Positions 16,737 to 63,509 of a DNA stretch of 64,000 bases are shown in pieces. The notes beneath the pieces were generated by a model. The model had not been told where the DNA came from. It saw only the letters and a program-made list of their open reading frames with translations, and searched no databases. Location: positions 30,197-94,196 of the forward strand of contig JAAFIV010000014.1 of the NCBI GenBank assembly GCA_013298775.1, in the 5' to 3' direction. Numbering within the stretch: the first letter of the stretch is position 1; each line of letters begins with the position of its first letter. A program made the translations under genes and the position numbers. This stretch comes from Ignavibacteria bacterium (GTDB taxonomy: Bacteria; Bacteroidota; Ignavibacteria; Kapaibacteriales; UBA4661).

Positions 16737-16793
16737 CGGCAGCAATACGGAATGGAAGTGTTTTCGAGAGACCCGCACAGAGCGCAGGGCTGT

Positions 16794-16949
16794 TAAGTTC
16801 TCGTGTTTGCCCTCATCCCAACCCTTCTCCCAGAAGGAGAAGGGCAAGACACAGAGCCGTTTCTGAAGCCCTCTCCTTCTGGGAGAGGGTTGGGTGAGGG
16901 CTTCACGGGAACAGAACTTAACAGCCCTGCGCACAAAGCGGGAGAGAGG
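16794..16949. mobile_element. Family A MITE-like palindromic element (about 156 nt) with 11-nt imperfect target-site duplication
   Basis: cagggctgttaagttct...agaacttaacagccctg; arms about 55 nt each around a central loop; flanks cgcacagagcg / cgcacaaagcg. Confidence 0.65.
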
Positions 16950-16998
16950 TACAAAATGTCAGTGATTTCTTGTACGACTTTCGCAAATGACGCAGACA

Positions 16999-17068
16999 GG
17001 AGTGTCTGCGCTACCACTTGTTTGAGGTTTTATGCGGCTTCGGTAGCACAGACACTCTTGTCTGTGCC
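16999..17068. repeat. Family B hairpin repeat
   Basis: gacgcagacaggagtgtctgcgctacc ... cggtagcacagacactcttgtctgtgcc. Confidence 0.65.
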
Positions 17069-18970: not shown

Positions 18971-19252
18971 GGCAAATGCGGCAAGAAAAGTGAGGAAAGT
19001 AACGGAACGGCGTTTATGGTGCTTGCTGTTCGTCCATATCGCCGCTCATCCTGAACTGAAGCGGCATTGCACAATATGGAATAGATTTTGCATAGCACAG
19101 CCGCTTGGTGTGCAAAATGCAAAAAATCTTCGCCAAGCGCAAGGGAAAAGAAAGAGGGTAGTTTGATTACGCGCAGCGCAACTGTTGCGTTGTCTGCGAA
19201 GACAAGGCTTGCCTTAATGTCATCAGCGCAAGCCCTCACACCGCTCTGCGAG

Positions 19253-19575
19253 CGACCCTCTCGCAGAGGTAGAGGGTTGAGAACGGCTCTGTGTCTTGCC
19301 CTTCTCTCTCTGGAAGAAGGGTTGGGATGAGGAAAAAATTCTTACGTTGATGACATCAAGGCATACCTTTAATGGCATTAAGTTAAGCATAACTGTATGA
19401 TTTTGAACGCTTAATCATTCGCCCCCTTGATAAAGGGGGAACGGGGGATTTGAGGTTTGAAGCGTCTTTCGACAAATCCCCCACTCGCTACGCTCGTTGC
19501 CCCCTTTATCAAGGGGGCAAGATTCTATGCGGTTTGTAGTCTTAACTTAATGCCATCAAGGCATACCTTGTCTCT
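19253..19575. repeat. Composite repeat cluster upstream of rpoN: family A half-element, then an empty family C inverted-repeat pair nested in an outer IR
   Basis: 19253-19333 matches one arm plus loop of family A. 19416-19528 has cattcgcccccttgataaagggggaacgggggattt and its degenerate inverted copy. Outer IR catcaaggcatacc..atggcattaagttaag / cttaacttaatgccatcaaggcatacc. Confidence 0.6.
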
Positions 19576-25167: not shown

Positions 25168-25235
25168 GCGCTGGAGAGAATACTCAAAAAAAACTCAATA
25201 CACGACAAAATCTTTGAAGAGTTGATAACATCAGG

Positions 25236-25316
25236 CTTCAGTGGCACAGACATTCTTGTCTGTGTTTTCCGCCTACACTCCGCACTAACGCTCACAGACA
25301 AGAATGTCTGTGCCAC
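25236..25316. repeat. Family B hairpin repeat
   Basis: cagtggcacagacattcttgtctgtg ... cacagacaagaatgtctgtgccactattg. Confidence 0.7.
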
Positions 25317-25473
25317 TATTGATGAAATTTGTCGTGGAGCTAACAAAAAAACTCAGAAAATACTCAACACACACTCTCGGCAGAGAGCAGAATACAAAAG
25401 CCGTCCGTCGCAGACCGCAAATGCCAAGCATTCATGCGCTTTACAACGGACGGCTTTTCCAATATAGCTAAAT

Positions 25474-26364: not shown

Positions 26365-26447
26365 AGGGTTTGTACGTGGTAAATCTGTATTCTGTTATTG
26401 TTCAATGTTTGTGGGATGCTTGGACGTGAACGATGTCGCATTCGCCC

Positions 26448-26934
26448 CCTTGATAAAGGGGGAACGGGGGATTTAACGCCTACAAGCCTCATCAATGCTT
26501 GTACAGATAGCTTCAAATCGCTCCAATACATCCAAATTAGTAAAGCGAATAACGCTTAGTCCATAACTACCGAGAAACGTTGTTCTTTTCGCATCATATT
26601 CTTGACCAGCATCAGTAAAATGCGGATCGCCATCAATTTCAATCACTATATTTTTTTCAGAGCAATAAAAATCAACAATATAGTTACCAAGCGGCTTCTG
26701 GCGTAGCCAGCGTACTGAGTGGGTTCGTAAAAACTCAAACCATAATTTTCGCTCGGCTAGTGTCATTGCTTGGCGCAATTCTCTTGCTCGGTCTTTCAAA
26801 GCAGGATTATACGGAATATATGGTGGTGAATTTTCCATATTTTTCACCTGAATATCCGAACTGTATTGAAGAGCAAAAAATGCACTTAGTGGTTAAATCC
26901 CCCGTTCCCCCTTTATCAAGGGGGCGAAGGAGTG
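26448..26934. mobile_element. Family C element: 37-nt terminal inverted repeats bounding a DUF559 endonuclease gene (candidate selfish REP13E12-like unit)
   Basis: Left cattcgcccccttgataaagggggaacgggggattta (26448-26486), right taaatcccccgttccccctttatcaagggggcgaaggagtg (26894-26934). Same IR pair without cargo at 19416-19528 and 45521-45797. Confidence 0.5.
26473..26847 (-). CDS. DUF559 endonuclease-domain protein (Vsr-like fold)
   Basis: LAERKLWFEFLRTH...WLRQKPLGNYIVDFYCSEKNIVIEIDGDPHF matches the DUF559 pattern (R..W..LR, xxDF, EIDG..H). Confidence 0.8.
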   Translation of the reverse strand: MKNMENSPPYIPYNPALKDRARELRQAMTLAERKLWFEFLRTHSVRWLRQKPLGNYIVDFYCSEKNIVIEIDGDPHFTDAGQEYDAKRTTFLGSYGLSVIRFTNLDVLERFEAICTSIDEACRR

Positions 26935-26950
26935 ATGCGGCTTTCGACGA

Positions 26951-30375: not shown

Positions 30376-30430
30376 AGTTCAAACCTTTGGTAAAAATGGT
30401 TAAATGAAAATAGAGTTTTTGATTCGTGCA

Positions 30431-30528
30431 TTGGTAGCGCAGACAAACTGAGGGAAGCCCTCAGTTTGTCTGCGCGGTGTTAGTGCGGCATTGAAGAAGG
30501 CACAGACAAGAGTGTCTGTGCTACTAAA
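30431..30528. repeat. Family B hairpin repeat
   Basis: ttggtagcgcagacaaactgagggaagccctcagtttgtctgcgc ... ggcacagacaagagtgtctgtgctactaa. Confidence 0.7.
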
Positions 30529-30540
30529 AACAGACGAATG

Positions 30541-31077
30541 CTACCGAAGGCGGAATAAATCTGCCGCATCCTGCTTTTCAATTTTCAAGCGGTCTGGATT
30601 AACAATCGGCTTGACGGCTTCATTAACTGCGTCAAACGCAATAGAAATATCACCGTTCCGCACTAAGTTTGGCATTCCAGTAATGGATAAAATGCCATTA
30701 TTTTTGCAAAATTCTTTCACAGTGCGTAAATCACCTCCGGGCGCAAGATAAATAACGTTTGCACCAACACCTACGCTTGCGAGTTGCCCACTTTTTGCGG
30801 CACTGGCTTTCATTCCAAGAGCTTCAAACGCCTCGACAACTTCATCTTTAACATCGCCCGTTGCATCACCATAGACGACAACAACTTTTACACCCTCTTT
30901 AGGAAGGGATTTGTTGTAGGCAAATACTTTCCGAAAAAAGCGAGCTTGCACCGAAACAGGTACAGGCATATCTTGTGCATGGCAAGTGTCGCTCAAAAGG
31001 GCGATGATTGCCATGAAACAACAACAAAATATCAGGACTTTCCCCGTCCAAATGTTCTTCATTGCAAGAAATTCCAC
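30541..31077 (-). CDS. DUF4154/YfiR-like periplasmic protein embedded in the atp operon
   Basis: Signal peptide; ARFFRKVFAYNKSLPKEG, VVVVYGDATG, GILSITGMPNLVRNGDISIAFDAVNEAVKPIVNPDRLKIEKQDAADLFRL match the YfiR-type fold pattern. Confidence 0.55.
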   Translation of the reverse strand: MEFLAMKNIWTGKVLIFCCCFMAIIALLSDTCHAQDMPVPVSVQARFFRKVFAYNKSLPKEGVKVVVVYGDATGDVKDEVVEAFEALGMKASAAKSGQLASVGVGANVIYLAPGGDLRTVKEFCKNNGILSITGMPNLVRNGDISIAFDAVNEAVKPIVNPDRLKIEKQDAADLFRLR

Positions 31078-31172
31078 AAAATGCTTTTTTCAGGCTCATA
31101 CCACAACGTGTACCACAGCGTGTACCACAAAGAGCGCACAGAATCTGGCGCGCCGAAAAAGCGGATGAGAGT

Positions 31173-31727
31173 TTAGTTATTAAACGCACCCTGCATAAGA
31201 CGTTTTTTCAAAACTTCGAGTTGGCGTTTGATGCTGTTGTCCACCATGCTATCGCCAATTTTAACAGTGAAACCACCAACGAGTGCAGGGTTTACATTGT
31301 AGGAAGCCACAGGCTTTTTGCCCGTGTATTCTTCAATTTTCTTTGTCAGTTTTTCTTGTTGTGCCGCATCCAATTCAACAGCAGAGGTAACTTCAATCAG
31401 AATCAAGCCCTGACGCTCATTGTAAAGCGTTTCAAATGATGCTAATACCGCAGAAAGCTCATTGATACGGCTTTTCTGGATGAGAAGCTCAAGGAAATTG
31501 ATTGTTGTCGGCGCAAGTTGTGATTTCTCCGCAATGACTTTGAGTGCGGTAGATTTCTGGCTTGCTTTGATAATTGGGCTTTCCACAAAAAGTGCGAAAT
31601 CGCGTGATTCGGCGAGCATTTTGCGTAAACCGCGCACATCGCTCATTGTGGTTTCGAGTGTATTAGACTGACTTGTTTCAGCGAACAACGCTGAGGCATA
31701 ACGAATAGCGACACGTGATTGTACCAT
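31173..31727 (-). CDS. atpH: F-type ATP synthase F1 delta subunit
   Basis: MVQSRVAIRYASALFAETSQ; OSCP/delta family, 184 aa. Confidence 0.85.
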   Translation of the reverse strand: MVQSRVAIRYASALFAETSQSNTLETTMSDVRGLRKMLAESRDFALFVESPIIKASQKSTALKVIAEKSQLAPTTINFLELLIQKSRINELSAVLASFETLYNERQGLILIEVTSAVELDAAQQEKLTKKIEEYTGKKPVASYNVNPALVGGFTVKIGDSMVDNSIKRQLEVLKKRLMQGAFNN

Positions 31728-31824
31728 GAGAATTCTTCAAAAATGGCGTTGCAAAAAGTAGTAGTGGTCGTAATAAACAAGAGCAATGGTGGAATAACTA
31801 CGTCGTAGATGTTGCTGTAATTTT

Positions 31825-32325
31825 TTAATTTTTCGCTTTTTGGATTTCATCAATAAAGCCATCAACAAGTTTCTTTTGCTGACCAACATCCAATTTTTCT
31901 TTCAGGATTTTTTCGGTTGCCATAATCACCAAGCTCGCTACTTCTTCGCGAAGCGACTGCATTGCTGATTGCTTTTCGCGCTCAATTTCCGTGCGGGCTT
32001 CATTCAATTTTTGCTCTTTTACTTTTTCTGCTTCTTGCAATGCTGCTTGCACTTTTGCTTGCGCTTCTTCGCGTCCTTGGCGCACGATTTCACTCATTTC
32101 CTGCTGTGCTTTTGCCATTTTCGCATCATTTTCTTGCATGAGGCGCGTAGCATCGGCACTCGCTTTTTCTGCACGGGAAATAGCTTCTTCAATAGAACGC
32201 TCACGCTCGGAAAGCGCGGTTGTAAGCGGCTTCCAAGCGAGTTTGCCGAGCAACAGGGCAAAAATTGTAAAGTTTACGATTGTCCAAACAATAAGTCCGG
32301 GCGAGACGCTCAATAAGCCATCCAT
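31825..32325 (-). CDS. atpF: F-type ATP synthase F0 subunit b
   Basis: Single N-terminal TM then long Ala/Glu/Lys/Gln-rich coiled coil; 166 aa. Confidence 0.85.
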   Translation of the reverse strand: MDGLLSVSPGLIVWTIVNFTIFALLLGKLAWKPLTTALSERERSIEEAISRAEKASADATRLMQENDAKMAKAQQEMSEIVRQGREEAQAKVQAALQEAEKVKEQKLNEARTEIEREKQSAMQSLREEVASLVIMATEKILKEKLDVGQQKKLVDGFIDEIQKAKN

Positions 32326-32438
32326 AATGGTTCAAAATTTCAGTGAAACAAGTTTAGTAGTATGAGATTTTGCAAACACTTTGCTTGGGGAAATCTGATT
32401 TTACGCGCCTTTTTATGTACCCTACAAAAAATCTTCAG

Positions 32439-32516
32439 TAGTGGCACAGACATTCTTGTCTGTGAGTATTGGCGTGTTTCAGGCGACAAACACAGACAAG
32501 AATGTCTGTGCCACTG
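32439..32516. repeat. Family B hairpin repeat
   Basis: agtagtggcacagacattcttgtctgtgag ... cacagacaagaatgtctgtgccactgaagc. Confidence 0.7.
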
Positions 32517-32676
32517 AAGCCTGATTTTATGAAGCCTACAGAGATTTTGCCTGATACTTCAAGGTGCTTTCCACAGAACAAGGCTTTTGCAAAAGCTCAA
32601 TGATAATGTACAAAAAAGATTGTGCTTCAAACCCGCTTCAAATCTAGGTTTGAAGCACAATCAACGCTGTAAAAAC

Positions 32677-32907
32677 TTACGCTTTTACTGCCAAAAGGAT
32701 ACAAATTACCAGCGCGAAGAAGGCAGCACCCTCGATAAGAGCAGCACCGATAATCATTGTGGTACGCAAGTCGCCTGCGGTTTCGGGCTGGCGGCTGCTT
32801 GCTTCAAGCGCAGCAGCTACAAGCTGACCAATACCAATGCCTACGCCGATGATGGCAATGCCTGCACCCAAACCGGCAGAAAGATATGCTAAAGCAGCAT
32901 TTGTCAT
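32677..32907 (-). CDS. atpE: F-type ATP synthase F0 subunit c
   Basis: 76-aa two-helix proteolipid, GAGIAIIGVGIGIGQ ... conserved carboxylate E in helix 2. Confidence 0.9.
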   Translation of the reverse strand: MTNAALAYLSAGLGAGIAIIGVGIGIGQLVAAALEASSRQPETAGDLRTTMIIGAALIEGAAFFALVICILLAVKA

Positions 32908-33062
32908 GATAATTCTCCAGAAATAGTAAGAAATGAATAAAAATGAACTCTATGAGAGTTTTGTGTCAAAGTTTGGTTAAAATTTTTCTCAAAAGTCTGC
33001 TGGATAATGAACAATGCGTTCTCCACACCTCAGCCCTCATCCCTCAAACTTCATCCTTCACC

Positions 33063-34160
33063 TTAGTGGTGGTCGTGCGCGTGGTCGCCAATCGCCATGC
33101 CCGTAAATACTGCCGTCAGCATCGTAAAGATGTACGCTTGCAAGAAGGCAGCGAGTGTTTCAAGGAAATAGACAAACACGGAAAATGCAACACTCGCGGG
33201 AGCAACGAAAATGCTTTTGAAGAAGAAGATAAGTCCCATAAACGCGAGCAATACGATGTGTCCTGCTGCCATATTCGCAAAAAGACGCATCGTAAGAACG
33301 AACGGCTTGATAAAAAGGCTCAGAATCTCAATCGGCACCATGATAGGAGCCATGTAGAGCGGTGCGCCGCCCGTCAAGTGCGCAAACCACGCACCAATGC
33401 CGGACTCACGAATAGCGGTGAAATTGATAACAAGGAAGGAAATGATTGCCAAGCCCGCCGTTACGCCGATTGCGCCTGTTGCGGAGTGTCCGCCCGGAAT
33501 CAAGCCAAAGATATTCAAAACGAGGATAAACGTGAAAAGCGAAAGGAAATACGGCAACATCCGCTCTGCCGTTGCGCGAGGTTTGATGTTCGGATAGACA
33601 ACTTCATCACGCATATAGATAACTACTGTTTCCAAGACGTTTTGAATGCCGCTCGGAGCTTTTTTCGGATTTTTCTTGTATCTGCCTGCCACAATCAAAC
33701 CGATTGCCAAAATGGTAAACATAGCAAACCATTCAAACAGCACGAAATTGGTGATAGACAAATCCAGCTTCGGCGGCTTCATATCTGCCTTGCGCACAGG
33801 ATGACCTTTCATCATCGTAAATTTGCCAGCTTCCTCCATTTTTGCAGGGCTGGAATACGCATGGAAATTGCCTTCGTCCCACATCATCATTGGTAAATCG
33901 GCAACATGACCGAAAAGAACAAAACCATGATGGTCGCCGAGTTCGCCCAGAAGGTGCGTAAATACTTCGCTTGGTGGCACATCGTGCGAACCGTGTGCGT
34001 CATGCCCAGCAGTTGCGGCGTGCGCGGCTGCTGTGTGTGCAGCAGCTTCACCGTGTTGAGTGGCATTTGCTGAAGCGTTTGCGCTCGCGTTTGCCGAAGC
34101 AGGTGCCTCGTGCGAAGTGGATTGAGCTAATTGTGAGGATTGATGCGTATCAGCGTGCAT
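33063..34160 (-). CDS. atpB: F-type ATP synthase F0 subunit a, with His/Ala-rich N-terminal extension
   Basis: C-terminal conserved MRLFANMAAGH...; N-terminal about 100 aa low complexity (ASANASANASANA, HTAAAHAATAGHDAHGSH); C-terminal GDHAHDHH; true start may be internal. Confidence 0.85.
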   Translation of the reverse strand: MHADTHQSSQLAQSTSHEAPASANASANASANATQHGEAAAHTAAAHAATAGHDAHGSHDVPPSEVFTHLLGELGDHHGFVLFGHVADLPMMMWDEGNFHAYSSPAKMEEAGKFTMMKGHPVRKADMKPPKLDLSITNFVLFEWFAMFTILAIGLIVAGRYKKNPKKAPSGIQNVLETVVIYMRDEVVYPNIKPRATAERMLPYFLSLFTFILVLNIFGLIPGGHSATGAIGVTAGLAIISFLVINFTAIRESGIGAWFAHLTGGAPLYMAPIMVPIEILSLFIKPFVLTMRLFANMAAGHIVLLAFMGLIFFFKSIFVAPASVAFSVFVYFLETLAAFLQAYIFTMLTAVFTGMAIGDHAHDHH

Positions 34161-34209
34161 ATTGTGAATGGATAATTGACGTTGATAAGAGTAGTATTTT
34201 GCGCGTTTT

Positions 34210-34282
34210 GTGGCGCAGACAAGAGTGTCCGCGCTACCCAGATAAACACTGGCTTCGGTAGAACAGACACTCTTGTCTGTTC
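34210..34282. repeat. Family B hairpin repeat
   Basis: tggcgcagacaagagtgtccgcgctaccc ... ggtagaacagacactcttgtctgttcc. Confidence 0.7.
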
Positions 34283-40221: not shown

Positions 40222-40289
40222 GCTTCGGTAGCGCGGACGCTCCTGTCTGCGACATTTGTGAGACGCAGACAAGAGTGTCCGCGCTACCA
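40222..40289. repeat. Family B hairpin repeat
   Basis: cggtagcgcggacgctcctgtctgcg ... cgcagacaagagtgtccgcgctacc. Confidence 0.7.
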
Positions 40290-41737: not shown

Positions 41738-41790
41738 GCTACTTGGGTTCAAACTATTCCACATGAAAAGTACACGATAACATTTCTTTA

Positions 41791-41872
41791 GTAGTGGCAC
41801 AGACATTCCTGTCTGTGAGTATTAGTGCGAGTTTTAGGTGGAAAACACAGACAGGAATGTCTGTGCCACTAA
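41791..41872. repeat. Family B hairpin repeat
   Basis: gtagtggcacagacattcctgtctgtgag ... cacagacaggaatgtctgtgccactaaaac. Confidence 0.7.
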
Positions 41873-41907
41873 AACAGGTTTCTTCAGAGATTTTATCGTG
41901 TAAAAAA

Positions 41908-44495: not shown

Positions 44496-44571
44496 TGGTA
44501 GCGCAGACACTCCTGTCTGCGAGGTTTCATAAGGCATTGAAGGGGCGCAGACAAGAGTGTCCGCGCTACGG
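44496..44571. repeat. Family B hairpin repeat
   Basis: ggtagcgcagacactcctgtctgcg ... gcgcagacaagagtgtccgcgctacg. Confidence 0.7.
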
Positions 44572-45467: not shown

Positions 45468-45520
45468 AAAGAATAGTTTTGTTGAGAAAATAACTATTGC
45501 AGAACGCTATCGAATTTGCC

Positions 45521-45797
45521 CCCTTGATAAAGGCAGGGCTGTTAAGTTCTCGTGTTTTCCCTCATCCCAACCCTTCTCCCAGAGGGAGAAGGGCAAGATA
45601 CAGAGCCACCTCTTCACCCTCGCCCCGCGTTTCGCGTGGGAGAGGGTCGCTCGCAGAGCGGGGTGAGGGCAGAACTTAACAGCCCTGCCCTTGATAAAGG
45701 GGGAACGGGGGATTTGTCCTGTGTGCGTGAGCAAGGGGTGCTGGAGACCGCACAGACCGTGAATCCCCCGTTCCCCCTTTATCAAGGGGGCGAATGA
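45521..45797. repeat. Family C inverted-repeat pair (empty) whose left arm is interrupted by a family A insertion
   Basis: gcccccttgataaagg | family A | cccttgataaagggggaacgggggattt ... aatcccccgttccccctttatcaagggggcgaatgagtg. Confidence 0.65.
45543..45687. mobile_element. Family A MITE-like element nested in family C, with 13-nt target-site duplication cccttgataaagg
   Basis: cagggctgttaagttctcg...cagaacttaacagccctg; duplicated flank at 45530-45542 and 45688-45700; removing element plus one duplicate restores an intact family C arm. Confidence 0.7.
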
Positions 45798-45949
45798 GTG
45801 AACTAATTGCTGTAGAACCTGAGTAGCTACGAAAAAGCAAGTATTGACGGGCTGCGGAAATGTTATTCGTGCAATGCAAGATACGGAGAAATGTTGTATT
45901 TTCGAGGTGCAATGGTGTACGACATTTTCAAATTTTTCCTTCATTCCGA

Positions 45950-47127: not shown

Positions 47128-49335
47128 ATGCGCTCTCGCACCTTATTTTTGCCTCCAGCATCGGTATTTTTTGCCAGCGCAGTGTTTGCTCTGGCTATGC
47201 AGATGTTTTTTGCCTCCTCGTTTGTACACGCACAAGGAAACACGCCGCCTGCACGAACATCACCACCCGCAAAACAAGCCATTTCCCATGAGGCAATGTG
47301 GCTACTGAGGCGTGTTGGTGCGCCGTCGCTCAGTCCCGATGGGCGGCTTGTGGTCGTGTCCGTAACCGAACCCAGCTACGACGAGAAAGAGCAAACAAGC
47401 GACCTCTGGATTTTTCCAAGCGATGGCAGCAAGAAACCACGCCGTCTGACGGCAACCAAAGGTGGTGAAAGCAGCATAGAATGGAGTCCCGACGGAACAA
47501 AAATTGCCTTTGCTGCAAAACGCGAGGGCGACGAAACAAGCCAAATCTACGTGCTGAATATCACCGAAAGTGGCGAAGCGCAGCGCGTTACCAATCTCTC
47601 CACAGGAGCATTCGCGCCACATTGGAGACCAGACGGGAAAGCATTACTTTTCCAAAGTGTGGTGTATCCAAATGCGCTGGATGATTCCACCAATAAAAAA
47701 ATTGCCACCGAGCGCAAAGCTCGTAAATACAAGGCTCGTGTGTATGAATCCTTCCCGATTCGCTATTGGGACCGTTGGTTGGACGATATGCAACCGCATA
47801 TTTTTGTGCAATCGCTGGAAGCAAATGCAAAAGCGCGTGATATTCTTGCTGGTACAGAACTCGTGAAACAAAGCGGCTTTGCGGGCGTTTCGGGCAATGG
47901 TGGTGCGGATATGCAAGCAACGTGGACGCACGACGGTCGCGCTATCGTTTTCACCGCCACCACAGAGCGCACCAAAGCTGCGTTTGCGGAGGTAAGCTAT
48001 CATTTGTGGCAAATAAATATCGGTGAAATTGGTGTGAACCCAGAATCGCCAAAGGCAGAACCTAAGCGGCTTACAAGCGGCAATGCGAGTTTTGGCGGTG
48101 CAAAGTTTTCCGCGCAAGGCAAGCTCTATTGCCTCATGAATCCTGCTAACGACAAGGTGTACAATCACACACGGTTGGTGGAAATTACCCCAGCAAATGG
48201 CGCAGTGAAAGCACTTACAGCGCAGTTCGACCGCTCGGTAGATAACTTTGAAATTAGCCCGAATGGTGCCATGATTGTTCTCAGCGCAGAAGACACAGGA
48301 TTGGTGCGGCTTTTCAGCCTTCCTCTCCAAAATAATGATACGAAAACCCCTGAAGTGAAGCCGCTTTTCGAGCAAACGCTCGGCTGCTACAATGGCTTCT
48401 CGCTTGGAAATTCGCTGCTTGTAGCGCAATTTGAAAGCGCGACCATGCCGAATGAAATTGTGAAAATTGAGTTGGGAAATGAAAAATCAAACGCCAGCAA
48501 CGCAAGGAAACATCAGGCATTGACGGATTTTAACGACGCTGCACTCGCCAAGCTCGACCTCGCGCCGCTTCGCCACTTCACCTTCACCAGCAAAGGCGGG
48601 AAGCCGATTCACAGCATGATTGCGCTACCGCCCGCTTTCGACGAAAGCAAGAAATATCCATTGTTGGTGATTATGCACGGCGGTCCGCACACGATGTTCC
48701 GCGATGCTTTTGGTTTGCGCTGGAATTATCATCTGCTTGCGCAGCCTGGTTATATCGTGCTTCTCACGAATTACACCGGTTCGACGGGCTTTAGCGAGAA
48801 ATTTGCGCAGGAAATTCAAGGCGACCCTTTTATCACTCCGGCGAATGAAATCAACGAAGCGGCGGACGAAGCAATAAAGCGGTTTTCGTATATTGATGCC
48901 AGCCGCCAAGCCTGTGGTGGTGCGAGTTACGGCGGACACTTGGCAAATTGGATGCAAGCCACGACCACGCGCTACAAGTGCCTCGTTGCGCATGCTGGCT
49001 TAATCAATTTGGAATCGCAGTGGGGAACAAGCGATGGAATCTACCACCGTGAGGTGAATAATGGCGGACCAGTCTGGGAGCAAGGTAAAGTCTGGCGTGA
49101 GCAGAATCCGATTCGTTTGGCAAAAAATTTCAAAACACCGATTATGCTTACCGTTGGCGAGAACGATTTTCGTGTGCCATTGAACCAAACTCTTGAGAAT
49201 TGGAGCGTTCTTCAGCGTTTGCAAATCCCCAGCAAACTCATTGTTTTCCCCGATGCAAACCATTGGATTTTGAAAGCAGAAGACCACCGTTTTTGGTTTC
49301 AGGAAATACAGGCGTGGTTGAAGAAGTATTTGTAA
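47128..49335 (+). CDS. S9-family serine peptidase (beta-propeller plus prolyl-oligopeptidase-type alpha/beta hydrolase)
   Basis: Signal peptide; TolB-like propeller repeats (SPDGRLVVVSV; SPDGTKIAFAA; RPDGKALLFQS); catalytic GGASYGGHL (GxSxGG) and downstream Asp/His region. Confidence 0.85.
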   Translation: MRSRTLFLPPASVFFASAVFALAMQMFFASSFVHAQGNTPPARTSPPAKQAISHEAMWLLRRVGAPSLSPDGRLVVVSVTEPSYDEKEQTSDLWIFPSDGSKKPRRLTATKGGESSIEWSPDGTKIAFAAKREGDETSQIYVLNITESGEAQRVTNLSTGAFAPHWRPDGKALLFQSVVYPNALDDSTNKKIATERKARKYKARVYESFPIRYWDRWLDDMQPHIFVQSLEANAKARDILAGTELVKQSGFAGVSGNGGADMQATWTHDGRAIVFTATTERTKAAFAEVSYHLWQINIGEIGVNPESPKAEPKRLTSGNASFGGAKFSAQGKLYCLMNPANDKVYNHTRLVEITPANGAVKALTAQFDRSVDNFEISPNGAMIVLSAEDTGLVRLFSLPLQNNDTKTPEVKPLFEQTLGCYNGFSLGNSLLVAQFESATMPNEIVKIELGNEKSNASNARKHQALTDFNDAALAKLDLAPLRHFTFTSKGGKPIHSMIALPPAFDESKKYPLLVIMHGGPHTMFRDAFGLRWNYHLLAQPGYIVLLTNYTGSTGFSEKFAQEIQGDPFITPANEINEAADEAIKRFSYIDASRQACGGASYGGHLANWMQATTTRYKCLVAHAGLINLESQWGTSDGIYHREVNNGGPVWEQGKVWREQNPIRLAKNFKTPIMLTVGENDFRVPLNQTLENWSVLQRLQIPSKLIVFPDANHWILKAEDHRFWFQEIQAWLKKYL

Positions 49336-49360
49336 TTCACCTTATGCAAACTCTCACGCC

Positions 49361-49468
49361 GCCCTCACCCCTCGCTGCGCGAGACCCTCTCCCAGAGGGC
49401 GAGGGTTGGTGGAGACTAGCTCTGAAGCCCTCTCCCTCTGGGCGAGGGTTGGGTGAGGGTCTTTTGCG
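49361..49468. repeat. Family A-related palindromic element (subfamily lacking the cagggctgttaagttct termini)
   Basis: ccctcacccctcgc...ccctctcccagagggcgagggttgg...ctctgaagccctctccctctgggcgagggttgggtgagggtc. Confidence 0.6.
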
Positions 49469-49487
49469 TAAAGTGAGTTTGTAATGT

Positions 49488-51359
49488 TTATTCGCGGTCT
49501 TCATTTTGGCGTGGCGACCCAAAAATGCTTCCAAAGCGAGTAAAAAACGACGAGCGCGGCGGCTCCGATACTGATGTTTCAGCTTCAGATTTCGTCCGCT
49601 CGCTCGTGCTTTTTTCGTGTGCTGATGCGCTTTGTGAGGTAGGCTGCGACGCTGATGATTCCGTTGTTAATGATTCTGTCGTCAATGATTCCGTTGTTAA
49701 TGATTCTGTCGTTAATGATTCTGTTGTCAATGATTCCGTTGTGCGTGATTGTTGTGCGCCAGACGTGGCGGAATCTACGGCAAAATCGAAGCTCTTGAAC
49801 ATTTCTGCAAGGTCGGCGGCTTGCATAGCAAACGACGGATGGTCGAACTGCGCTTCCAATGGTATTCCTGATGCAGGTACTGATGACGCAAGCGGCTCGG
49901 TAATTTCAAACTCTGCATCAATCACGGAAGTTGTCGTGTTGGGTGCTTGATTGCTGGCTTGATTGCTGGCTTTGTGTGGAGTTTCAGGTGCTGTTGAAAT
50001 TGGTTGATGAAGCGAGTTCTCAGGTGATTTTTCAGGTAATTTTTCAGGTAATTCCTCATTGGTCAAGATTGTTGCAGGTGAGTTTTCATGCGCACTCTGG
50101 GCAATATCGCTTGTTTCGGTGTGGTCTTGTTCAATTGCTTTTTCTGTCACTTTGAATGAAGATTGTTCCGACGGTATTGTTGCTTGCTGCGTCGTTTCTG
50201 CTTGTGTTGATTCCGAAACAGGAGAAGGCGTACTCGCTAGATGTGCTTCCGCGCTTGCAACGGTGCGCTTTGTACGGATTGCTGTACCGATAGCCAGTTC
50301 GCCAATGGTATCGTCGGCTTTGAGTATCGGCTCTTCGTGCGCTGGAAATTGGGGTGCAAAATTGAGTGGAAGTGTTGTCGTGTCCTCTATTGGTGCGGGT
50401 TTGGGGAGTTCGTCGTTGGCAATGGCGAGTTCTAATTTCGCAACAATATCGTTCAGCACGTGGAGAAACTCGCGTTGCCCAACATAGCGCAGGGAACGAG
50501 TTTTCATCAGCTCTTCCAGCTCTTGTGCAATGCGGTAAATACCTTTGTCATCCAAGAAAATAATCAGCGCGGGTGTAGGAACTTTGCCGCGATATTGCTG
50601 TAATGCGCGGTCTCCAGCGTGAATTTCATCGAACATTTCAAACATTGGCGTAAGCAAATCCGTAAATTCTTCGGGCGAATACTCCAAAATCACGTCGTTA
50701 TCAACGGTTTGCAACACGCGGTCGAATTCCACCACCGACACTAAACTGGTATCAACCGTGAAAGGTCGCACAGAATCTGGCTTTGTGAGGTTGTCCTGCA
50801 AGCGAGTATCGGTGCGGTCTGTGGGGGATTGTGTGGCTGTACCTGTGAAAGCTCCATTGCCGCCATTTGCTTCCGCACCTGATTTTTCCTGCTGTTTCGT
50901 GCTAATCCAGTTCCGCACACCATCCAACATGTAATCGTATTCCAAAAAATAATCCATGCGAAGCATTACTTCGCGCAAGGTTTTCGTGGGTTCGCCGCGA
51001 TAGACAAACCATTTCAGCGTTGTGCGCGGACGCAAGATGTAGTTGAAGCGAGTTTTTACGGCAAGGTCAATAGCAGCGTTCAGGTCTTGGTGGTCGTAGC
51101 GGGCGGATTCCATCAGCACGTGGTCAAGTTCGCTGAAAAGCCCTGAGAGTGCGGGGTTGGTGGTGTCGAAGCGAGGATTAGCGGCGCGTTGCATTTGTTG
51201 GTCAAAAATCCACCATTGCGATTCCGCACCAAAGAAATTTCGGTAAAAGACGGCAATATCCGCCCTGCGACGAATGTCGTCCCAATAGACGTACTGCGAA
51301 GCACCAGCCATGCGCTGTGTGAGCAATTCTTTTGCGCGTTGTATTTCTCGTTCAAACAT
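49488..51359 (-). CDS. Hypothetical protein (623 aa) with conserved-looking N-terminal about 330 aa and acidic low-complexity C-region including (TESLT)x5
   Basis: 15-nt tandem repeats at about 49640-49740 encode TESLTTESLTTESLTTESLTTESLT; no domain recognised by eye. Confidence 0.5.
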   Translation of the reverse strand: MFEREIQRAKELLTQRMAGASQYVYWDDIRRRADIAVFYRNFFGAESQWWIFDQQMQRAANPRFDTTNPALSGLFSELDHVLMESARYDHQDLNAAIDLAVKTRFNYILRPRTTLKWFVYRGEPTKTLREVMLRMDYFLEYDYMLDGVRNWISTKQQEKSGAEANGGNGAFTGTATQSPTDRTDTRLQDNLTKPDSVRPFTVDTSLVSVVEFDRVLQTVDNDVILEYSPEEFTDLLTPMFEMFDEIHAGDRALQQYRGKVPTPALIIFLDDKGIYRIAQELEELMKTRSLRYVGQREFLHVLNDIVAKLELAIANDELPKPAPIEDTTTLPLNFAPQFPAHEEPILKADDTIGELAIGTAIRTKRTVASAEAHLASTPSPVSESTQAETTQQATIPSEQSSFKVTEKAIEQDHTETSDIAQSAHENSPATILTNEELPEKLPEKSPENSLHQPISTAPETPHKASNQASNQAPNTTTSVIDAEFEITEPLASSVPASGIPLEAQFDHPSFAMQAADLAEMFKSFDFAVDSATSGAQQSRTTESLTTESLTTESLTTESLTTESLTTESSASQPTSQSASAHEKSTSERTKSEAETSVSEPPRSSFFTRFGSIFGSPRQNEDRE

Positions 51360-51389: not shown

Positions 51390-54300
51390 TCAATGCGCGG
51401 CTCCCGCCTGAGTTTCCGCTTGAGTTTCCGTCTGAGTTTCAGCCGTAGCGTCTGCTGAACCGTTTTTCTGCGGAAGCGTTATCGTAAAGGTTGTGCCTTG
51501 TCCGGGCGTACTTTCTACGGTAATTTCGCCATGATGTCGCTCAATAATTTGCCGCGTAATGCTCAGTCCCAAGCCGCTATTTCCCACGCTTTTGGTCGTG
51601 AAGAATGGCTCGAAAATATGCTTTTGCGTCTCCGCATCCATACCTTTTCCGTTGTCGTGTACCGAAAAGATAAGTTTTGGTGCGCCCTCTGAGCCGTCCG
51701 ACAGTTCTGCGGCAATACGAATGCGCGTGGCACCAGCTTGTGCGGCATTTACAAGCAGATTCAGCATGGCTTGGTTGATTTCATCCCACTGCGCTTTTAC
51801 GTGGATGTGGCTTGGCAGCTGCTCTTCCACCACAATATCCTTGAATTGATACCGAAACATTGTTGCAGTGGAGCGCACTTCCGCCGCCACATCGTTGCGG
51901 GTTTTTCCTACGTGCTGATGCTTAGTAAAACCTTGCAAGGACGTTACGATATTGCCAATACGCTCCGAGCCAGTCAGAGCAATGTGTAAAATATCTGCCA
52001 GTTTCTGCGCACGCTCTGTGAAGCCCGCCGCTTCTTTGCTGGCGCGACCCTCGGCATCCAAAAGCGAGAAAAAATACTGCTCTAAGCTGCGTAGTTGTTG
52101 CTGTCCAAGCTCGACTGCCGAATGAATAGAAGCATTCGGATTATTGATTTCGTGCATCACGCCTGCGGTTAGCATCCCTGCTGCATTGATGCGCTCGCTC
52201 TGCACAAGCTGTGTTTGCGTGTCTTTCAGCTCGTTGAGCGTAGAATCAAGCTGCAAATTCGTTTCTTGCAAGCGTGTGTTGCTGATTTCAATTTCTTGCG
52301 CTTGCTCATCCAAAATTTCGAGCTGGCGATGAACTTCAATATTCGCTTCTTTGAGTTGATGAGTGCGCTCATCTACAAGGCGCGTCAGTTCTTGGTTGCG
52401 AAGCTCAATCGTGCGAATACGGCGTTTGTACAGCAAAAATGCCGCAAGAAGCGTGAGAATGCTACTGCCGGCAAGAAACCACCATGCCCGCCACCAAGGA
52501 GGGCGCACAATTACTCGCAGTGCGGTGGCGCGGTTTTGCCAAACGCCATTGTGGTCGGCGGCTTTCACAAAGAAGGTGTATTCTCCATCGGGCAGACTGG
52601 TGTATTTTGCTTCGCGTTCCGTTCCCGCGAGAATATATGCGGTGTCCAGCCCTTCCAGCTTATAGGCAAATTGCGCATGCTCTGGATAGAGCATACTCGG
52701 CGCGGCATAGCCAAAAGCAATAATTTTATCTGCATAGCCAAGCTCAATGCGCTCTGCATCGGCAATATACTCTTCCAGTGGCGTAATTTCGCCAAATTTT
52801 TTCACATACGTCATCACCGCTTTGTTGGAAGTATTCTCTTTACCAATATCCGTACCAACATTCGCACCAACATCGGAACGTATGGAATTGACAGCACCAC
52901 GAATAATACTATCGGGATGAAAATACACAATCGCAGAACGCCCGCCAAACCATAATTTTCCGTCGCGGGAGCGCGTGGCTGCGCCATTGGAAAATTCATC
53001 ATCGGCAAGACCGCTTGCACGTGTAAACGTGAGTATTGATGAGCCTTCCACGCCTTTCATGTTCTCTTCGCTTATCCTGCATACACCGCGCCGCGTGCTG
53101 ACCCAGATATTGCCGCTCCCGTCTTCCACAATGCCTGCAATGGCGTTATTGGGTAATCCAGTGCGTGTGCTGAAATGCCTCACCAATGCTTGTGTTGCGG
53201 GGTCGAAGCAGGAAACACCGCCCTCAGAGCCAATCCACACACGTCCTTTGCTATCGCACAAAAGCGCGTGAACAGCACCAACAATGCCAGAAGCCGCAGT
53301 ATTGCTCAGGTTTTCTTGCTCTTCTGTTTCTTCTTCGTGATTGTTTGTCGGGAACGCATAAGCGCGGAAATGGCGGAACATCTTGCGTTTGGGGTCGAAG
53401 GTATCTACGCCACCTTCATGCCCAATCCAGAGCATTTTTGCACGGTCTTGGATAATGGTATGAATCGTATTATTCCCCAAACTCTCAGTATTACTGGGTT
53501 TGTTGGTGAATTGCTTCACAACATTTCCCGCCGCATCCAGCAAGAATAAGCCAACGGAGTGTGTGCCAATCCAAAAATTTCCATCCGCATCCTCCAGCAT
53601 CGCACTGACAGGCAGAGCTTGATTATTGAACAGCAATGTATGTTCAAAGCGAGTATTCGCGCCACTTTCGTCGCTAATACGACGTTCCAGTGCGAAACCG
53701 CCTACCCACCACGCGCCGCGCCGTGTGCCGACATTGGTGCTGCAAAAGGCGTAGATATTGGTCTCGCCGTCGAAGCCGAGCAGGGAGCTAGGATTACGAG
53801 CATCGGTGCGAAGGTGGGAAATAGCTTGCGTGCGAGGGTTGAAGAGGCTTACGCCCGTGCCATTCATGTAGCCAATCCACATCGCGCCATCGGGAGCTTC
53901 GGCAATGGCAGAAACGCTGTGTGCAAGAAGCAATGGCTTGGTGAGAGCCGCAAAGGGCGGCGGCGGCGGCAAGAGTGCGCTTACGCCGCTACTTGTACGT
54001 GCAAACCAGATTTTACCAGCTTTACTCACGCACGCGCCCGCAACGCCAGCATGTAAGCGCGTTGGCGCGGCGGCATCTGCAAGGAGGAGTTCGCTGTGCA
54101 TTTGTGCGGTGTTTAGGCGAATTGCGCCATTGCCCACGCCCCAGTAGATATGCCCGTTGTTTGCATCTAGCGCAGTTCTATGGCTCTGCGCCTTGCCTTC
54201 AAGCGGTAATACGGGCAATGGTTCGCTCATGGTGCCGCGTTGAACATCCACCCAAACAATAGTATTCACCGTGCCTTCACGCCGCATTGCGCCCGCAAAT

Positions 54301-55265
54301 ACATTGCCCGTGCTGTCTTTTTCCAGCATAATAATTCCACTCTCCCGCAACAGCGTCGTGCTGTTCGCGCCCGTAAATGGCTGAATCGCAAGATTTCCTG
54401 CGGCTTGTGGCTGTGCGCAGTGAAATAATCCTTTGCCCGTCCCGATAAGGAGTTCGCCATTACTCATTTCTTGAAGCGAGTGAATATGCGCTGTTGGGGT
54501 GTTTGCAATGGAAGCGTTTGCGGTGGAAGCATTTGCTGTGGAAGCATTTGCGGTGGAAGCGTTTGCTGCGGGAGTGTTGCTCGTGGCATCGCTCAGGAAT
54601 GGCGTACAGACACCTGTTTCAGGCGAATAACGATGCAGACCATTTGCAGTGCCAAGCCAAAGCGTGCCGTGCGAATCGTGCAGGAATGCGTACAAATATG
54701 CCGAGCGCAAGCCCTTTTCACCTGCTTTGAGAATGATTTCTTTCCTCACTTCTTTGCTTGCTGTTATCCTTATCTCTTGGTTTGATTCTTCAAGGATGCC
54801 GATTTCATCTGTGCGCATAGCTGCCGTGTGAATCCAGCACCAGAGCTTGCCGGAACGGTCTTCGTGTATATCGGCGATGGGCTTATTGGCAAAAAAGCGT
54901 TGGAAGGTGTTCGTGTTGCGATTGAGGCGTGCAAGTCCTGAAGCCGTTCCCAGCCATAATCTTCCTTGCTTGTCCTCGTGCAGATGCAGAACGTTGCTGC
55001 TTGGCAAGGATCGCACATTACCGCTTTCATGTAGAAACTGGGTCATGGAAACGCCATCCCAACGAAATGCACCTTGCTCGGTTGCAAACCACAGAAAGCC
55101 ATATTTGTCTTGCAAAACCGCCTGAACATGGCGTGAATGCAAGCCTTGCTGGGTAGTGAGTGCCTCAATTTGGAGGGTTTGCTGTGCAAAACTCGGCGCA
55201 CAACAGATAAACAGATTGCACAGGCAAAAAAAACAGCCAAAAAAATATTGTAGCGAATGTTTCAT
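51390..55265 (-). CDS. Two-component-regulator propeller (Reg_prop/Y_Y_Y) sensor histidine kinase without receiver domain
   Basis: Signal peptide; repeated propeller motifs (GTLWLGTANGL; LWIGHEGGV; GRVWIGSEGGV; GNIWVSTRRGV); TM WWRAWWFLAGSSILTLLAAFLLY; H-box VMHEINNP; N LVNAAQAG, G1 VHDNGKGM, G2 GNSGLGL. Internal 15-nt tandem repeats (ANAST)x4. ATG at 55265. Confidence 0.85.
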   Translation of the reverse strand: MKHSLQYFFGCFFCLCNLFICCAPSFAQQTLQIEALTTQQGLHSRHVQAVLQDKYGFLWFATEQGAFRWDGVSMTQFLHESGNVRSLPSSNVLHLHEDKQGRLWLGTASGLARLNRNTNTFQRFFANKPIADIHEDRSGKLWCWIHTAAMRTDEIGILEESNQEIRITASKEVRKEIILKAGEKGLRSAYLYAFLHDSHGTLWLGTANGLHRYSPETGVCTPFLSDATSNTPAANASTANASTANASTANASIANTPTAHIHSLQEMSNGELLIGTGKGLFHCAQPQAAGNLAIQPFTGANSTTLLRESGIIMLEKDSTGNVFAGAMRREGTVNTIVWVDVQRGTMSEPLPVLPLEGKAQSHRTALDANNGHIYWGVGNGAIRLNTAQMHSELLLADAAAPTRLHAGVAGACVSKAGKIWFARTSSGVSALLPPPPPFAALTKPLLLAHSVSAIAEAPDGAMWIGYMNGTGVSLFNPRTQAISHLRTDARNPSSLLGFDGETNIYAFCSTNVGTRRGAWWVGGFALERRISDESGANTRFEHTLLFNNQALPVSAMLEDADGNFWIGTHSVGLFLLDAAGNVVKQFTNKPSNTESLGNNTIHTIIQDRAKMLWIGHEGGVDTFDPKRKMFRHFRAYAFPTNNHEEETEEQENLSNTAASGIVGAVHALLCDSKGRVWIGSEGGVSCFDPATQALVRHFSTRTGLPNNAIAGIVEDGSGNIWVSTRRGVCRISEENMKGVEGSSILTFTRASGLADDEFSNGAATRSRDGKLWFGGRSAIVYFHPDSIIRGAVNSIRSDVGANVGTDIGKENTSNKAVMTYVKKFGEITPLEEYIADAERIELGYADKIIAFGYAAPSMLYPEHAQFAYKLEGLDTAYILAGTEREAKYTSLPDGEYTFFVKAADHNGVWQNRATALRVIVRPPWWRAWWFLAGSSILTLLAAFLLYKRRIRTIELRNQELTRLVDERTHQLKEANIEVHRQLEILDEQAQEIEISNTRLQETNLQLDSTLNELKDTQTQLVQSERINAAGMLTAGVMHEINNPNASIHSAVELGQQQLRSLEQYFFSLLDAEGRASKEAAGFTERAQKLADILHIALTGSERIGNIVTSLQGFTKHQHVGKTRNDVAAEVRSTATMFRYQFKDIVVEEQLPSHIHVKAQWDEINQAMLNLLVNAAQAGATRIRIAAELSDGSEGAPKLIFSVHDNGKGMDAETQKHIFEPFFTTKSVGNSGLGLSITRQIIERHHGEITVESTPGQGTTFTITLPQKNGSADATAETQTETQAETQAGAAH

Positions 55266-55333
55266 TGTAAGCAAATATCTTCAAATTATGACACAAAAAC
55301 TCGTTGCATGAACCATTCACGACCAAGGAATCA

Positions 55334-56602: not shown

Positions 56603-56812
56603 AAAATCTTGATTGGTAAGTATATGATTCTGGAATGAAGGAGTGATTTTTTGGAACGCGGATGAAGCCCAGATTCTCAGGATATTGAGGACTTTTTTCC
56701 ATTCTTGCTATCCTCACCGTCCTGTTAATCCTCAAATCCGCGTTCTTTGCCTGTATCTTTCATCATCACTGCATGTAGCAAGAATTCTATATTCACCTTA
56801 CACAAACTCTCA

Positions 56813-56912
56813 CGCCGCCCTCACCCCTCGCTGCTCTCCCAGAGGGAGAGGGTTGGTGGAGACTAGCTCTGAAGCCCTCTCCCTCTGGGAGAGGGTTGGG
56901 TGAGGGTCTTTT
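56813..56912. repeat. Family A-related palindromic element between susC and susD
   Basis: Near-identical to the 49361-49468 copy (ccctcacccctcgctgctctcccagagggagagggttggtggagactagctctgaagccctctccctctgggagagggttgggtgagggtc). Confidence 0.6.
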
Positions 56913-56939
56913 GCGTAAGGTGAGTCATATAGTTAAAGT

Positions 56940-63360: not shown

Positions 63361-63444
63361 TGCTAATGTTGGTAGTAATGTTGGGTTTGGTTGTTCGCCG
63401 TTGGTGGTGGAAGTGGAAATAATGGAAGTAAACGCCCACAAACA

Positions 63445-63509
63445 ACAGTGTCTGTGCCATATTGCCACGAAGAAAATTTCATGGCAACATACCACAGACA
63501 CTTCTTTTG
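63445..63509. repeat. Degenerate family B repeat
   Basis: acagtgtctgtgccat ... accacagacacttcttttg. Confidence 0.4.

Follow-up and report, generated by a model that had tools for sequence, protein, structure and literature searches.

REP-associated tyrosine transposases (RAYTs) are HUH/Y1 enzymes of the IS200 superfamily that normally occur once per genome and are themselves flanked by their cognate repetitive extragenic palindromic (REP) elements. Work on TnpA-REP is said to include that of Nunvar in 2010 and of Messing in 2012 (4ER8). REPs tagged with GTAG or GTGG and arranged in head-to-head (HH) or tail-to-tail (TT) dimers have been described in several phyla, according to one survey (PMC3733652), and inverted pairs of REPs that are separated by a short spacer, fold into one long hairpin and replicate as a doublet together with the spacer are known as REP doublets forming hairpins (REPINs; Bertels and Rainey 2011, PMC3116915). 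Here, a stretch of 64,000 nucleotides of contig JAAFIV010000014.1 from an Ignavibacteria bacterium of the Kapaibacteriales (assembly GCA_013298775.1; hereafter the window) was analysed for a family of hairpin repeats found between genes of its ATP synthase (atp) cluster and beside several unrelated genes. These repeats are likely to be GTAG-type REP elements, mostly arranged as REPINs and mobilised by a RAYT.

The window repeats share with the GTAG-type REPs of PMC3733652, such as the Escherichia coli REPs of bacterial interspersed mosaic elements (BIMEs) and the Stenotrophomonas SMAG elements, a stem of 6-13 bp that carries the tetranucleotide GT(A/G)G at its foot and closes in a short loop, the occurrence of G-T pairs within the stem, HH and TT dimers 20-100 bp apart, and an extragenic location, and that survey also records a GTGG variant in Opitutus terrae. 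They differ in their host, a member of the Kapaibacteria/Ignavibacteria within the Bacteroidota-Chlorobi group, whereas the survey gave only CGTC-type repeats for Chlorobi and Bacteroidetes. The flanks of the window REPs (AAAATCAGGCTTCAGTGG...) match those found in metagenome-assembled genomes (MAGs) of Candidatus Kapaibacterium (L075). Because of the GT(A/G)G foot, the short hairpin, the HH and TT dimers, and the extragenic location, the repeats were assigned to the GTAG-type REPs and their long-hairpin doublets to the REPINs (PMC3733652, PMC3116915, and PMC6006769). The analogy with enterobacterial REP elements, drawn in an earlier sequence-only reading of this DNA, thus holds. As in the REPINs of PMC3116915, inverted pairs with a short spacer form one long hairpin, the doublet with its spacer appears as the replicated unit, and copies persist at orthologous sites besides being gained and lost; those REPINs were characterised alongside RAYTs of groups 2 and 3 from Pseudomonas and enterobacteria, whereas the present REP is linked, in other genomes, to RAYTs that look like group 4 or subclass 2.4. 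A full-text literature search for the repeat sequence returned only unrelated primer matches.

Repeat family, units and folding

A search of the window with the pattern GCRCAGACANNNNTGTCYGYG, allowing up to three mismatches, gave 34 strand-hits, which amount to 17 positions because the repeat core is palindromic; the shuffle expectation was 0.43, and none of 100 shuffles reached 34. True family members were found at 16 of the 17 positions, the remaining one (59879) looking like a chance match, and an nhmmer profile built on the units recovered the same 16 canonical units from the window and nothing further convincing. Unit number 17, at 30434-30475, is a long-loop form with an extra palindrome inserted in its loop. 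The final tally for the window is 17 units at nine extragenic sites, with inverted doublets at eight sites and four sites inside the ATP synthase cluster. Pattern search, nhmmer and Pfam-backed gene calls therefore confirmed the hairpin repeats that the sequence-only reading had placed in the atpI/atpB and atpE/atpF gaps, in the gap upstream of atpA, and at the other positions it named, and its ten copies reduce to nine sites, as the copies listed before hmgA and after recX occupy one and the same gap.

Oriented by their asymmetric end, the copies share a 24-nt consensus, GT(A/G)G-C(A/G)C(A/G)GACA-YTCY-TGTCTG(Y)G, and the head reads GTAG or GTGG in 16 of 17 units and ATGG in a degenerate single unit. 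Two subtypes occur in the window, GTGG-CAC..GTG and GTAG-CGC..GCG, split by an A-T to G-C change in the stem. The stem comprises 8 bp and the loop 4 nt, and all stem cells (100%) pair across the 16 canonical units. Compensatory double changes were detected at two stem positions (A-T/G-C and C-G/A-T, the latter in unit 34258), and the one-sided changes are all of the G-T/G-U kind and all on the GTRG strand. In the terminology of PMC3733652, six doublets carry their GTRG heads outside (HH) and two carry them inside (TT: 16991-17066 and 34214-34281).

Folded as DNA, single units reached -7.7 to -9.8 kcal/mol (z -3.9 to -4.9) and doublets -30 to -34 kcal/mol. Folded as RNA, seven of the eight doublets each paired arm to arm in a single long hairpin, with energies between -41.7 and -53.1 kcal/mol (z -6.7 to -10.6), and the eighth (30434-30524) formed two separate hairpins totalling -50.4 kcal/mol, since one of its arms has the long inserted loop. 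The stable stem-loops assumed in the sequence-only reading were thus recovered, at roughly -42 to -53 kcal/mol if transcribed. In the GTGG subtype, the copies at 25.2, 32.4 and 41.8 kb and the copy in a close relative (L108, described below) have ~130 nt in common, which comprise arms, spacer and an outer palindrome, CACGACAAAAT...ATTTTGTCGTG; as spacer and outer palindrome are repeated along with the arms, the copied unit is the doublet and not the single hairpin, which is less clear for the GTAG-CGC subtype. Rfam 15 gave no match at gathering score over the window, and the sub-threshold generic miRNA-precursor hairpins that appeared under permissive settings were rejected as an artefact of any long perfect hairpin.

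With respect to location, all nine sites lay outside genes when these were taken to begin at plausible start codons, although about 86% of the 64-kb window, over which this count was made, is coding (chance ~2e-8), in agreement with the intergenic placement described in the sequence-only reading. Moreover, every gene flanking an element is on the minus strand, and every element sits in a co-directional gap. The maximal open reading frames (ORFs) of the rlmD-like, POT, hmgA and arfB genes overlap elements at their 5' ends; a plausible ATG is available downstream each time, and the Pfam domains of these four ORFs begin well downstream of the elements, so that the long extensions are probably mis-called starts.

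Linkage of the REPs to RAYT genes in other genomes

A scan of a genome collection with GTRGCRCRGACANNNNTGTCTGYG, its loop left free, found more than 107 loci. The loop read [ACT]TC[CT] in 119 of the 138 matches listed, against about 2% expected, and a partner core lay within 150 nt in half of the matches listed; this loop bias and these partner cores indicate that the matches are true family members. All-against-all clustering of the ORFs from the 107 REP-bearing loci among the matches listed returned mostly ABC ATPases and the like, together with one three-locus cluster that proved to be RAYT. The three ORFs scored 85.6, 81.5 and 79.6 bits against the NCBIfam model NF047646 'REP-associated tyrosine transposase' (cutoff 80) and also matched Pfam Y1_Tnp. 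Their NHVH (HUH), WQ and YIxNNP motifs are invariant, and their best match among solved structures is the E. coli TnpA-REP, 4ER8.

In an Ignavibacteria MAG (L057), GT(G/A)GCACAGACATTCTTGTCTGTG lies upstream of the RAYT gene and the inverse of this sequence downstream; the bracketing REPs, two forward and one inverted, are identical to the window REP. In L100, closely related REP variants bracket the gene in a similar arrangement. A metagenome scan with an alignment of the three proteins revealed 80 further RAYT loci. The closest of these (L111-L124) almost all carry a GTRG-hairpin upstream and a hairpin-CYAC downstream with the loop YTCY, and their stems covary (CACAGACA, CACAGGCT, CACAGGCA, CACCGGCA and GGCAGGCT). 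The REPs of L111 are identical to those of the window, and a RAYT flanked by the same REP was found in L057, L100, L111, L120 and L123. A GTRG-tagged perfect hairpin occurred within 300 nt of the RAYT at 68 of 83 loci, compared with 7.7 (maximum 16) in shuffled flanks, and 28 of the 83 had an inverted upstream/downstream pair. The ORFs of L057, L100 and L111-L124 therefore share with the known RAYT/TnpA-REP proteins (IS200/IS605 Y1 HUH; PDB 4ER8; PMC6006769) the motifs, the NF047646 and Y1_Tnp matches, the resemblance to 4ER8, and the inverted GTRG hairpins of a 'REPtron'.

The REP-linked RAYTs are about 35-55% identical to each other, and the E. coli RAYT is distant from them (E = 5e-4). Judged by their motifs, they look like subclass 2.4 of Quentin et al. 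(PMC6006769), which corresponds to Bertels group 4, and group 4 RAYTs are common in Cyanobacteria, Chlorobia and Bacteroidetes (PMC5581495). They depart from the published picture of subclass 2.4 in their stems, which are here short and canonical (8-9 bp), whereas 'long' or 'double foot' REPs are emphasised there. Positions 1-1300 of L111 hold a metagenomic RAYT inside a dense array of two alternating REP types (CACAGACA..TGTCTGTG and CACCGGCA..TGCCGGTG), which appears to be a 'REPtron' with two co-resident REP subfamilies. A miniature inverted-repeat transposable element of the DDE type was also considered and set aside, as no signature of terminal inverted repeats or target-site duplication was found and the linkage between GTRG-hairpins and RAYTs explains the data.

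With the structure and biochemistry of the E. coli RAYT/REP system as a model (PDB 4ER8; cited in PMC6006769), the source genome would encode, outside the window, a RAYT that recognises the single-stranded hairpin together with its GTRG guide, cuts and rejoins the DNA there, and so copies REPIN doublets into new extragenic sites. Copies disrupting genes or leaders would be removed by selection, leaving the distribution observed, in which the elements occupy the non-conserved stretch of co-directional gaps, past the stop codon of the preceding gene and ahead of the next leader. Their presence in the atp gaps would then be a consequence of mobility and tolerance and is unlikely to reflect a conserved regulatory design.

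Several observations weigh against REPs mobilised by a RAYT. No RAYT gene was found in the 64-kb window by tblastn, and the cognate RAYT of the source genome is postulated from other genomes that carry the same REP. Neither a transposition event nor a target-site signature was definable between filled and empty sites, whose flanks are about 12% diverged. In addition, the arms of the REPIN between atpE and atpF are identical in the window and L108, whereas the flanking intergenic DNA differs by about 10-12%, and such identity could represent host-level selection on that copy. We infer the RAYT of the source genome, the RAYT-driven mobilisation of the window copies and any effect on mRNA by analogy with the described systems.

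The nine sites and their gene context

The gene calls around the elements were backed by Pfam and comprise atpI-like/atpB, atpE/atpF, a 178-aa ORF/atpA, atpG/pssA, oxidoreductase/rpoN, the rlmD-like gene, POT, hmgA/recX, and arfB. The sequence-only reading had treated the ATP synthase genes as a single operon; the gene cluster itself was confirmed, and it is not one unbroken operon, as an epimerase gene, ridA and an ORF with a DUF559 domain lie between atpA and atpG.

Within the cluster, the atpI-like/atpB gap holds a TT doublet at 34214-34281 (units 34214-34237, minus, and 34258-34281, plus; -41.7 kcal/mol), whose second unit has the variant stem AAC..GTT, a compensatory change; the orthologous gap is empty in L108 and L109. 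The atpE/atpF gap contains an HH REPIN at 32441-32514 (units 32441-32464, plus, and 32491-32514, minus; -51.3 kcal/mol, z -10.2), with its palindrome extending to about 32409-32552 and with AUUUUUU on the mRNA strand one base past the extended stem. Between the 178-aa ORF and atpA, the REPIN at 30434-30524 combines the long-loop arm at 30434-30475 (plus; GTAG-CGCAGACAAACTGAGGG-AAGC-CCCTCAGTTTGTCTGCG) with a canonical arm at 30501-30524 (minus). The fourth copy, an HH REPIN with GTGG heads at 25241-25316 (units 25241-25264, plus, and 25293-25316, minus; palindrome to about 25199-25338; -50.1 kcal/mol), lies between atpG and pssA, downstream of a terminator-like hairpin of atpG.

Outside the cluster, a TT doublet at 16991-17066 (units 16991-17014, minus, and 17043-17066, plus) lies between the rpoN stop at 17093 and the oxidoreductase start at 16934 and folds into one RNA hairpin of -49.9 kcal/mol (z -8.5). 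An HH REPIN of the GTAG-CGC subtype at 40228-40287 (-53.1 kcal/mol, z -10.4) separates the POT stop at 40307 from the likely start of the rlmD-like gene (ATG 40182), and one of the GTGG-CAC subtype, also HH, at 41794-41869 (palindrome to about 41760-41895; -48.8 kcal/mol, z -10.6) lies between the stop of an M24 peptidase gene at 41908 and the POT gene, whose likely start is downstream of it. Another HH REPIN of the GTAG-CGC subtype, at 44498-44569 (-49.4 kcal/mol, z -10.0), occupies the gap between the recX stop at 44679 and hmgA, the likely start of which is ATG 44449 with AGGAGG ahead of it. The last site is the single degenerate unit with the head ATGG and a weakened stem, at 63437-63460 (minus), upstream of the likely arfB start (ATG 63360); alone, its hairpin is not significant (-8.9 kcal/mol, z -0.8).

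Leaders of about 50 nt beside the starts of atpE, atpF and atpA are conserved in the nearest relatives, and the gap sequence that holds the elements is upstream of these leaders. The leaders at 30376-30430 (atpA), 32326-32385 (atpF) and 32908-32965 (atpE) are nearly identical between the window and L108; those of atpA and atpF recur in L191, and that of atpF also in L192 (for example, GTTTGCAAAATCTCA...TGTTTCAC.GAAATTTTGAACC ahead of atpF). They may be promoters or translation leaders, with the REPINs sitting immediately upstream. The ORF between atpH and atpA (30541-31077, minus; about 154-178 aa) is shared by the window with all five relatives (L108, L191, L192, L194 and L196). Its product of 178 aa gave no Pfam match, and the label DUF4154 given to it in the sequence-only reading is not supported; the ORF is conserved in the lineage and has no assigned Pfam family.

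Gain and loss among relatives

A close relative (L108, GCA_004292595.1), about 87.5% identical in DNA to the window, was found through its exactly matching AtpE protein. It has the gene order of the window, atpZ-atpI-atpB-atpE-atpF-atpH-ORF-atpA-epimerase-ridA-atpG-pssA, and further relatives with the same order were reached through AtpF homologues, namely L191, L192/L193, L194 and L196, with AtpF identities of 85%, 76%, 75% and 64%, respectively. The AtpE search also returned a 1.3-kb Logan contig (L110) identical to the window; an identical fragment is present in run SRR9948923.

Comparison of the atpI/atpB, atpE/atpF, ORF/atpA and atpG/pssA gaps, all four of which are occupied in the window, revealed that L108 has only the atpE/atpF REPIN, at the same position and with identical arms, and that its other three gaps are empty. 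L191 carries a REPIN only in the ORF/atpA gap, with the same odd CTGAGGG..CCCTCAG arm as the window copy, and this shared long-loop arm marks the two copies as orthologous. In L192, L194 and L196, none of the four gaps is occupied. On this comparison of sequences, copies appear to persist across speciation and also to be gained or lost, as expected for REPINs, and are not a conserved feature of the atp cluster. A PAS histidine-kinase gene follows pssA in L108 (14571-16286) and lies about 22 kb from pssA in the window (399-2149); this displacement indicates a rearrangement between the two beside a REPIN-bearing gap.

The hairpin behind atpE and the regulatory question

A non-REP hairpin resembling an intrinsic terminator is located 14 nt past the atpE stop codon at 32612-32662 (minus; stem 32618-32662, U6 32612-32617). 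Its stem of 17 bp folds at -26 kcal/mol (z -6.2), and it has the GC-rich stem and U-tract of intrinsic terminators. A strong hairpin of -27.7 to -50.4 kcal/mol occurs at this position in all five relatives (L108 7278-7330, L191 2350-2400, L192 5491-5590, L194 2711-2770 and L196 7844-7900), with unrelated sequence in the more distant ones, and a U-run follows it in the window and likewise in three of these relatives. The hairpin resembles a conserved element that attenuates the c-subunit message or forms its 3' end, and as a candidate for an atpE-specific 3' end or attenuator it is preferable to the REPIN about 100 nt further on. In a consensus scan for terminators and promoters, counts did not exceed those expected from shuffles, and the loop size that the scan allows is too small for the REPINs and for this hairpin.

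These observations bear on the proposal of the sequence-only reading that the repeats are host-selected RNA elements of the atp transcript, which would block 3' exonucleases or direct processing and could thereby set the c subunit far above the a subunit. In E. coli, REPs stabilise upstream mRNA (cited in PMC6006769 and PMC3733652), through 3' protection as in malE-malF, and here too a stable stem-loop in a co-directional gap could block 3' exonucleases: the RNA hairpins would be very stable, all copies would be transcribed together with the genes if these are organised in operons, the one-sided stem changes are G-U compatible, and the arms of the atpE/atpF copy are unchanged in a relative diverged by about 12%, with a U-run after this copy on the mRNA strand. 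However, the positions do not fit a logic of c above a. No REP separates atpB (a) from atpE (c), a copy that precedes atpB can give c no advantage over a, and the atpE/atpF REPIN follows atpE by about 160 nt, behind the dedicated hairpin with its U6; a strong hairpin at that position is kept across the lineage. Moreover, occupancy varies among relatives with the same gene order, as three of the four atp-cluster copies are absent in L108, the atpE/atpF copy is absent in L191, and all are absent in L192, L194 and L196; identical elements stand beside the unrelated genes rpoN, rlmD, POT, hmgA and arfB, and no Rfam family matches. We therefore consider such host-selected RNA elements improbable and the strong form of the stoichiometry model unlikely. 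Hairpins of -50 kcal/mol could plausibly have an incidental effect on mRNA decay, and the atpE/atpF REPIN, given its identical arms over about 12% divergence and the U-run after it, might have been recruited to serve behind atpE as an additional terminator or stabiliser.

A related possibility, that the doublets serve as intrinsic and possibly bidirectional terminators or insulators between neighbouring genes, would accord with their long, GC-containing stems and with the AUUUUUU one base past the extended stem of the atpE/atpF copy. It is weakened by the lack of a U-tract after the stem in the other copies, by the consensus terminator scan, which reported none of the REPINs, and by the differing occupancy among relatives, and terminators at these positions in a conserved gene cluster would cut off downstream atp genes; we rate it as somewhat less probable again than RNA elements under host selection. 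E. coli BIMEs have been proposed as sites for gyrase, IHF and Pol I, and the repeats might likewise be binding or structural sites for host proteins at the DNA level, kept for chromosome organisation and not for mobility. The conservation of the 24-nt sequence, loop included, in genomes labelled as at least ten phyla does point to a strong sequence-specific constraint, but RAYT recognition explains this constraint more simply, as RAYT genes are bracketed by these very hairpins. Moreover, from one RAYT lineage to another the stems are free to covary, with the GTRG head and the loop retained, and close relatives differ in whether a copy is present. Sites for host proteins are accordingly the least probable of these explanations, with little in prospect beside REPs mobilised by a RAYT.

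Other repeats and insertions in the window

The ORF with the DUF559 (Vsr-like endonuclease) domain, between ridA and atpG, encodes 124 aa (26473-26847, minus) and is bracketed by 42-nt inverted repeats of another family (26441-26482 and 26887-26928; 95% complementary). The region 26441-26928 looks like a separate small insertion, which L108 does not have. A second repeat family, built on CCCCCTTGATAAAGGGGGAACGGGGGATTT and its inverse, is present in at least seven copies, several of them inverted pairs, at 19404-19528, 26427-26474, 26896-26935 and 45501-45801. More repeat families occur at 16784-16942, 19232-19337, 45533-45670, 49324-49478 and 56780-56925; one consists of CCCTCTCCC(N3)GGGAGAGGGTTGGGTGAGGG hairpins and another of a 75-nt unit, GCAGGGCTGTTAAGTTCT...GGGCAAGA, whose copies are 96-97% identical. 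These further families cluster beside the REP copy at 16.9 kb. Also, tandem 15-nt repeats at 49640-49759 (about eight copies) and 54490-54574 (about five copies), within the minus-strand ORFs 49488-51359 and 51390-55274, presumably encode pentapeptide repeats.

Distribution across phyla and implications

Among the matches listed, the REP GT(A/G)G-CACAGACA-(H)TCY-TGTCTGTG was found in genomes labelled as at least ten phyla, the labels being Acidobacteriota, Planctomycetota, Verrucomicrobiota, Lentisphaerota, Bacteroidota (including Ignavibacteria and Kapaibacteria), Zixibacteria, Cloacimonadota, Hydrogenedentes, Eisenbacteria, Binatia and Aquificota (Aquificaceae); most of these genomes are MAGs, so that the phylum labels carry a risk of binning errors. 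Among the Planctomycetota matches are complete chromosomes and an isolate, Gemmata algarum. About 19 predicted viral contigs (L198-L218, IMG/VR) carry the same REP with the typical YTCY loop, twice as an inverted doublet, and no RAYT was found near the REPs on these contigs; they could represent prophage DNA colonised by REPINs or a transfer route between hosts.

REPs are generally described as lacking conservation from one species to another (PMC6006769). The occurrence of the same REP under at least ten phylum labels, while the linked RAYTs have diverged to about 35-55% identity, might be due to an unusually rigid code of RAYT-DNA recognition or to repeated transfer of RAYT/REPIN systems between phyla, a suggestion drawn from sequence comparison that we make only tentatively and regard as doubtful. 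If true and unreported, this breadth would contradict the usual view of REPs as species-specific and vertically inherited, and the identity of REPs across phyla would offer a handle on how RAYTs read DNA and how the elements move from lineage to lineage.

GTAG and GTGG REPs, HH and TT dimers, REPINs, and RAYTs of group 4 or subclass 2.4 have all been described, and the host lineage and the breadth may be new. For annotation, the stretches concerned should be labelled REP/REPIN and not operon-specific regulatory RNAs, and for ATP synthase expression the relevant element would be the conserved hairpin behind atpE rather than the REPs. The present case illustrates concretely how REPINs are gained and lost within a gene cluster that is itself essential and conserved and, given the likely identity of the repeats, would extend GTAG-type REPIN/RAYT systems to the Kapaibacteria/Ignavibacteria branch.

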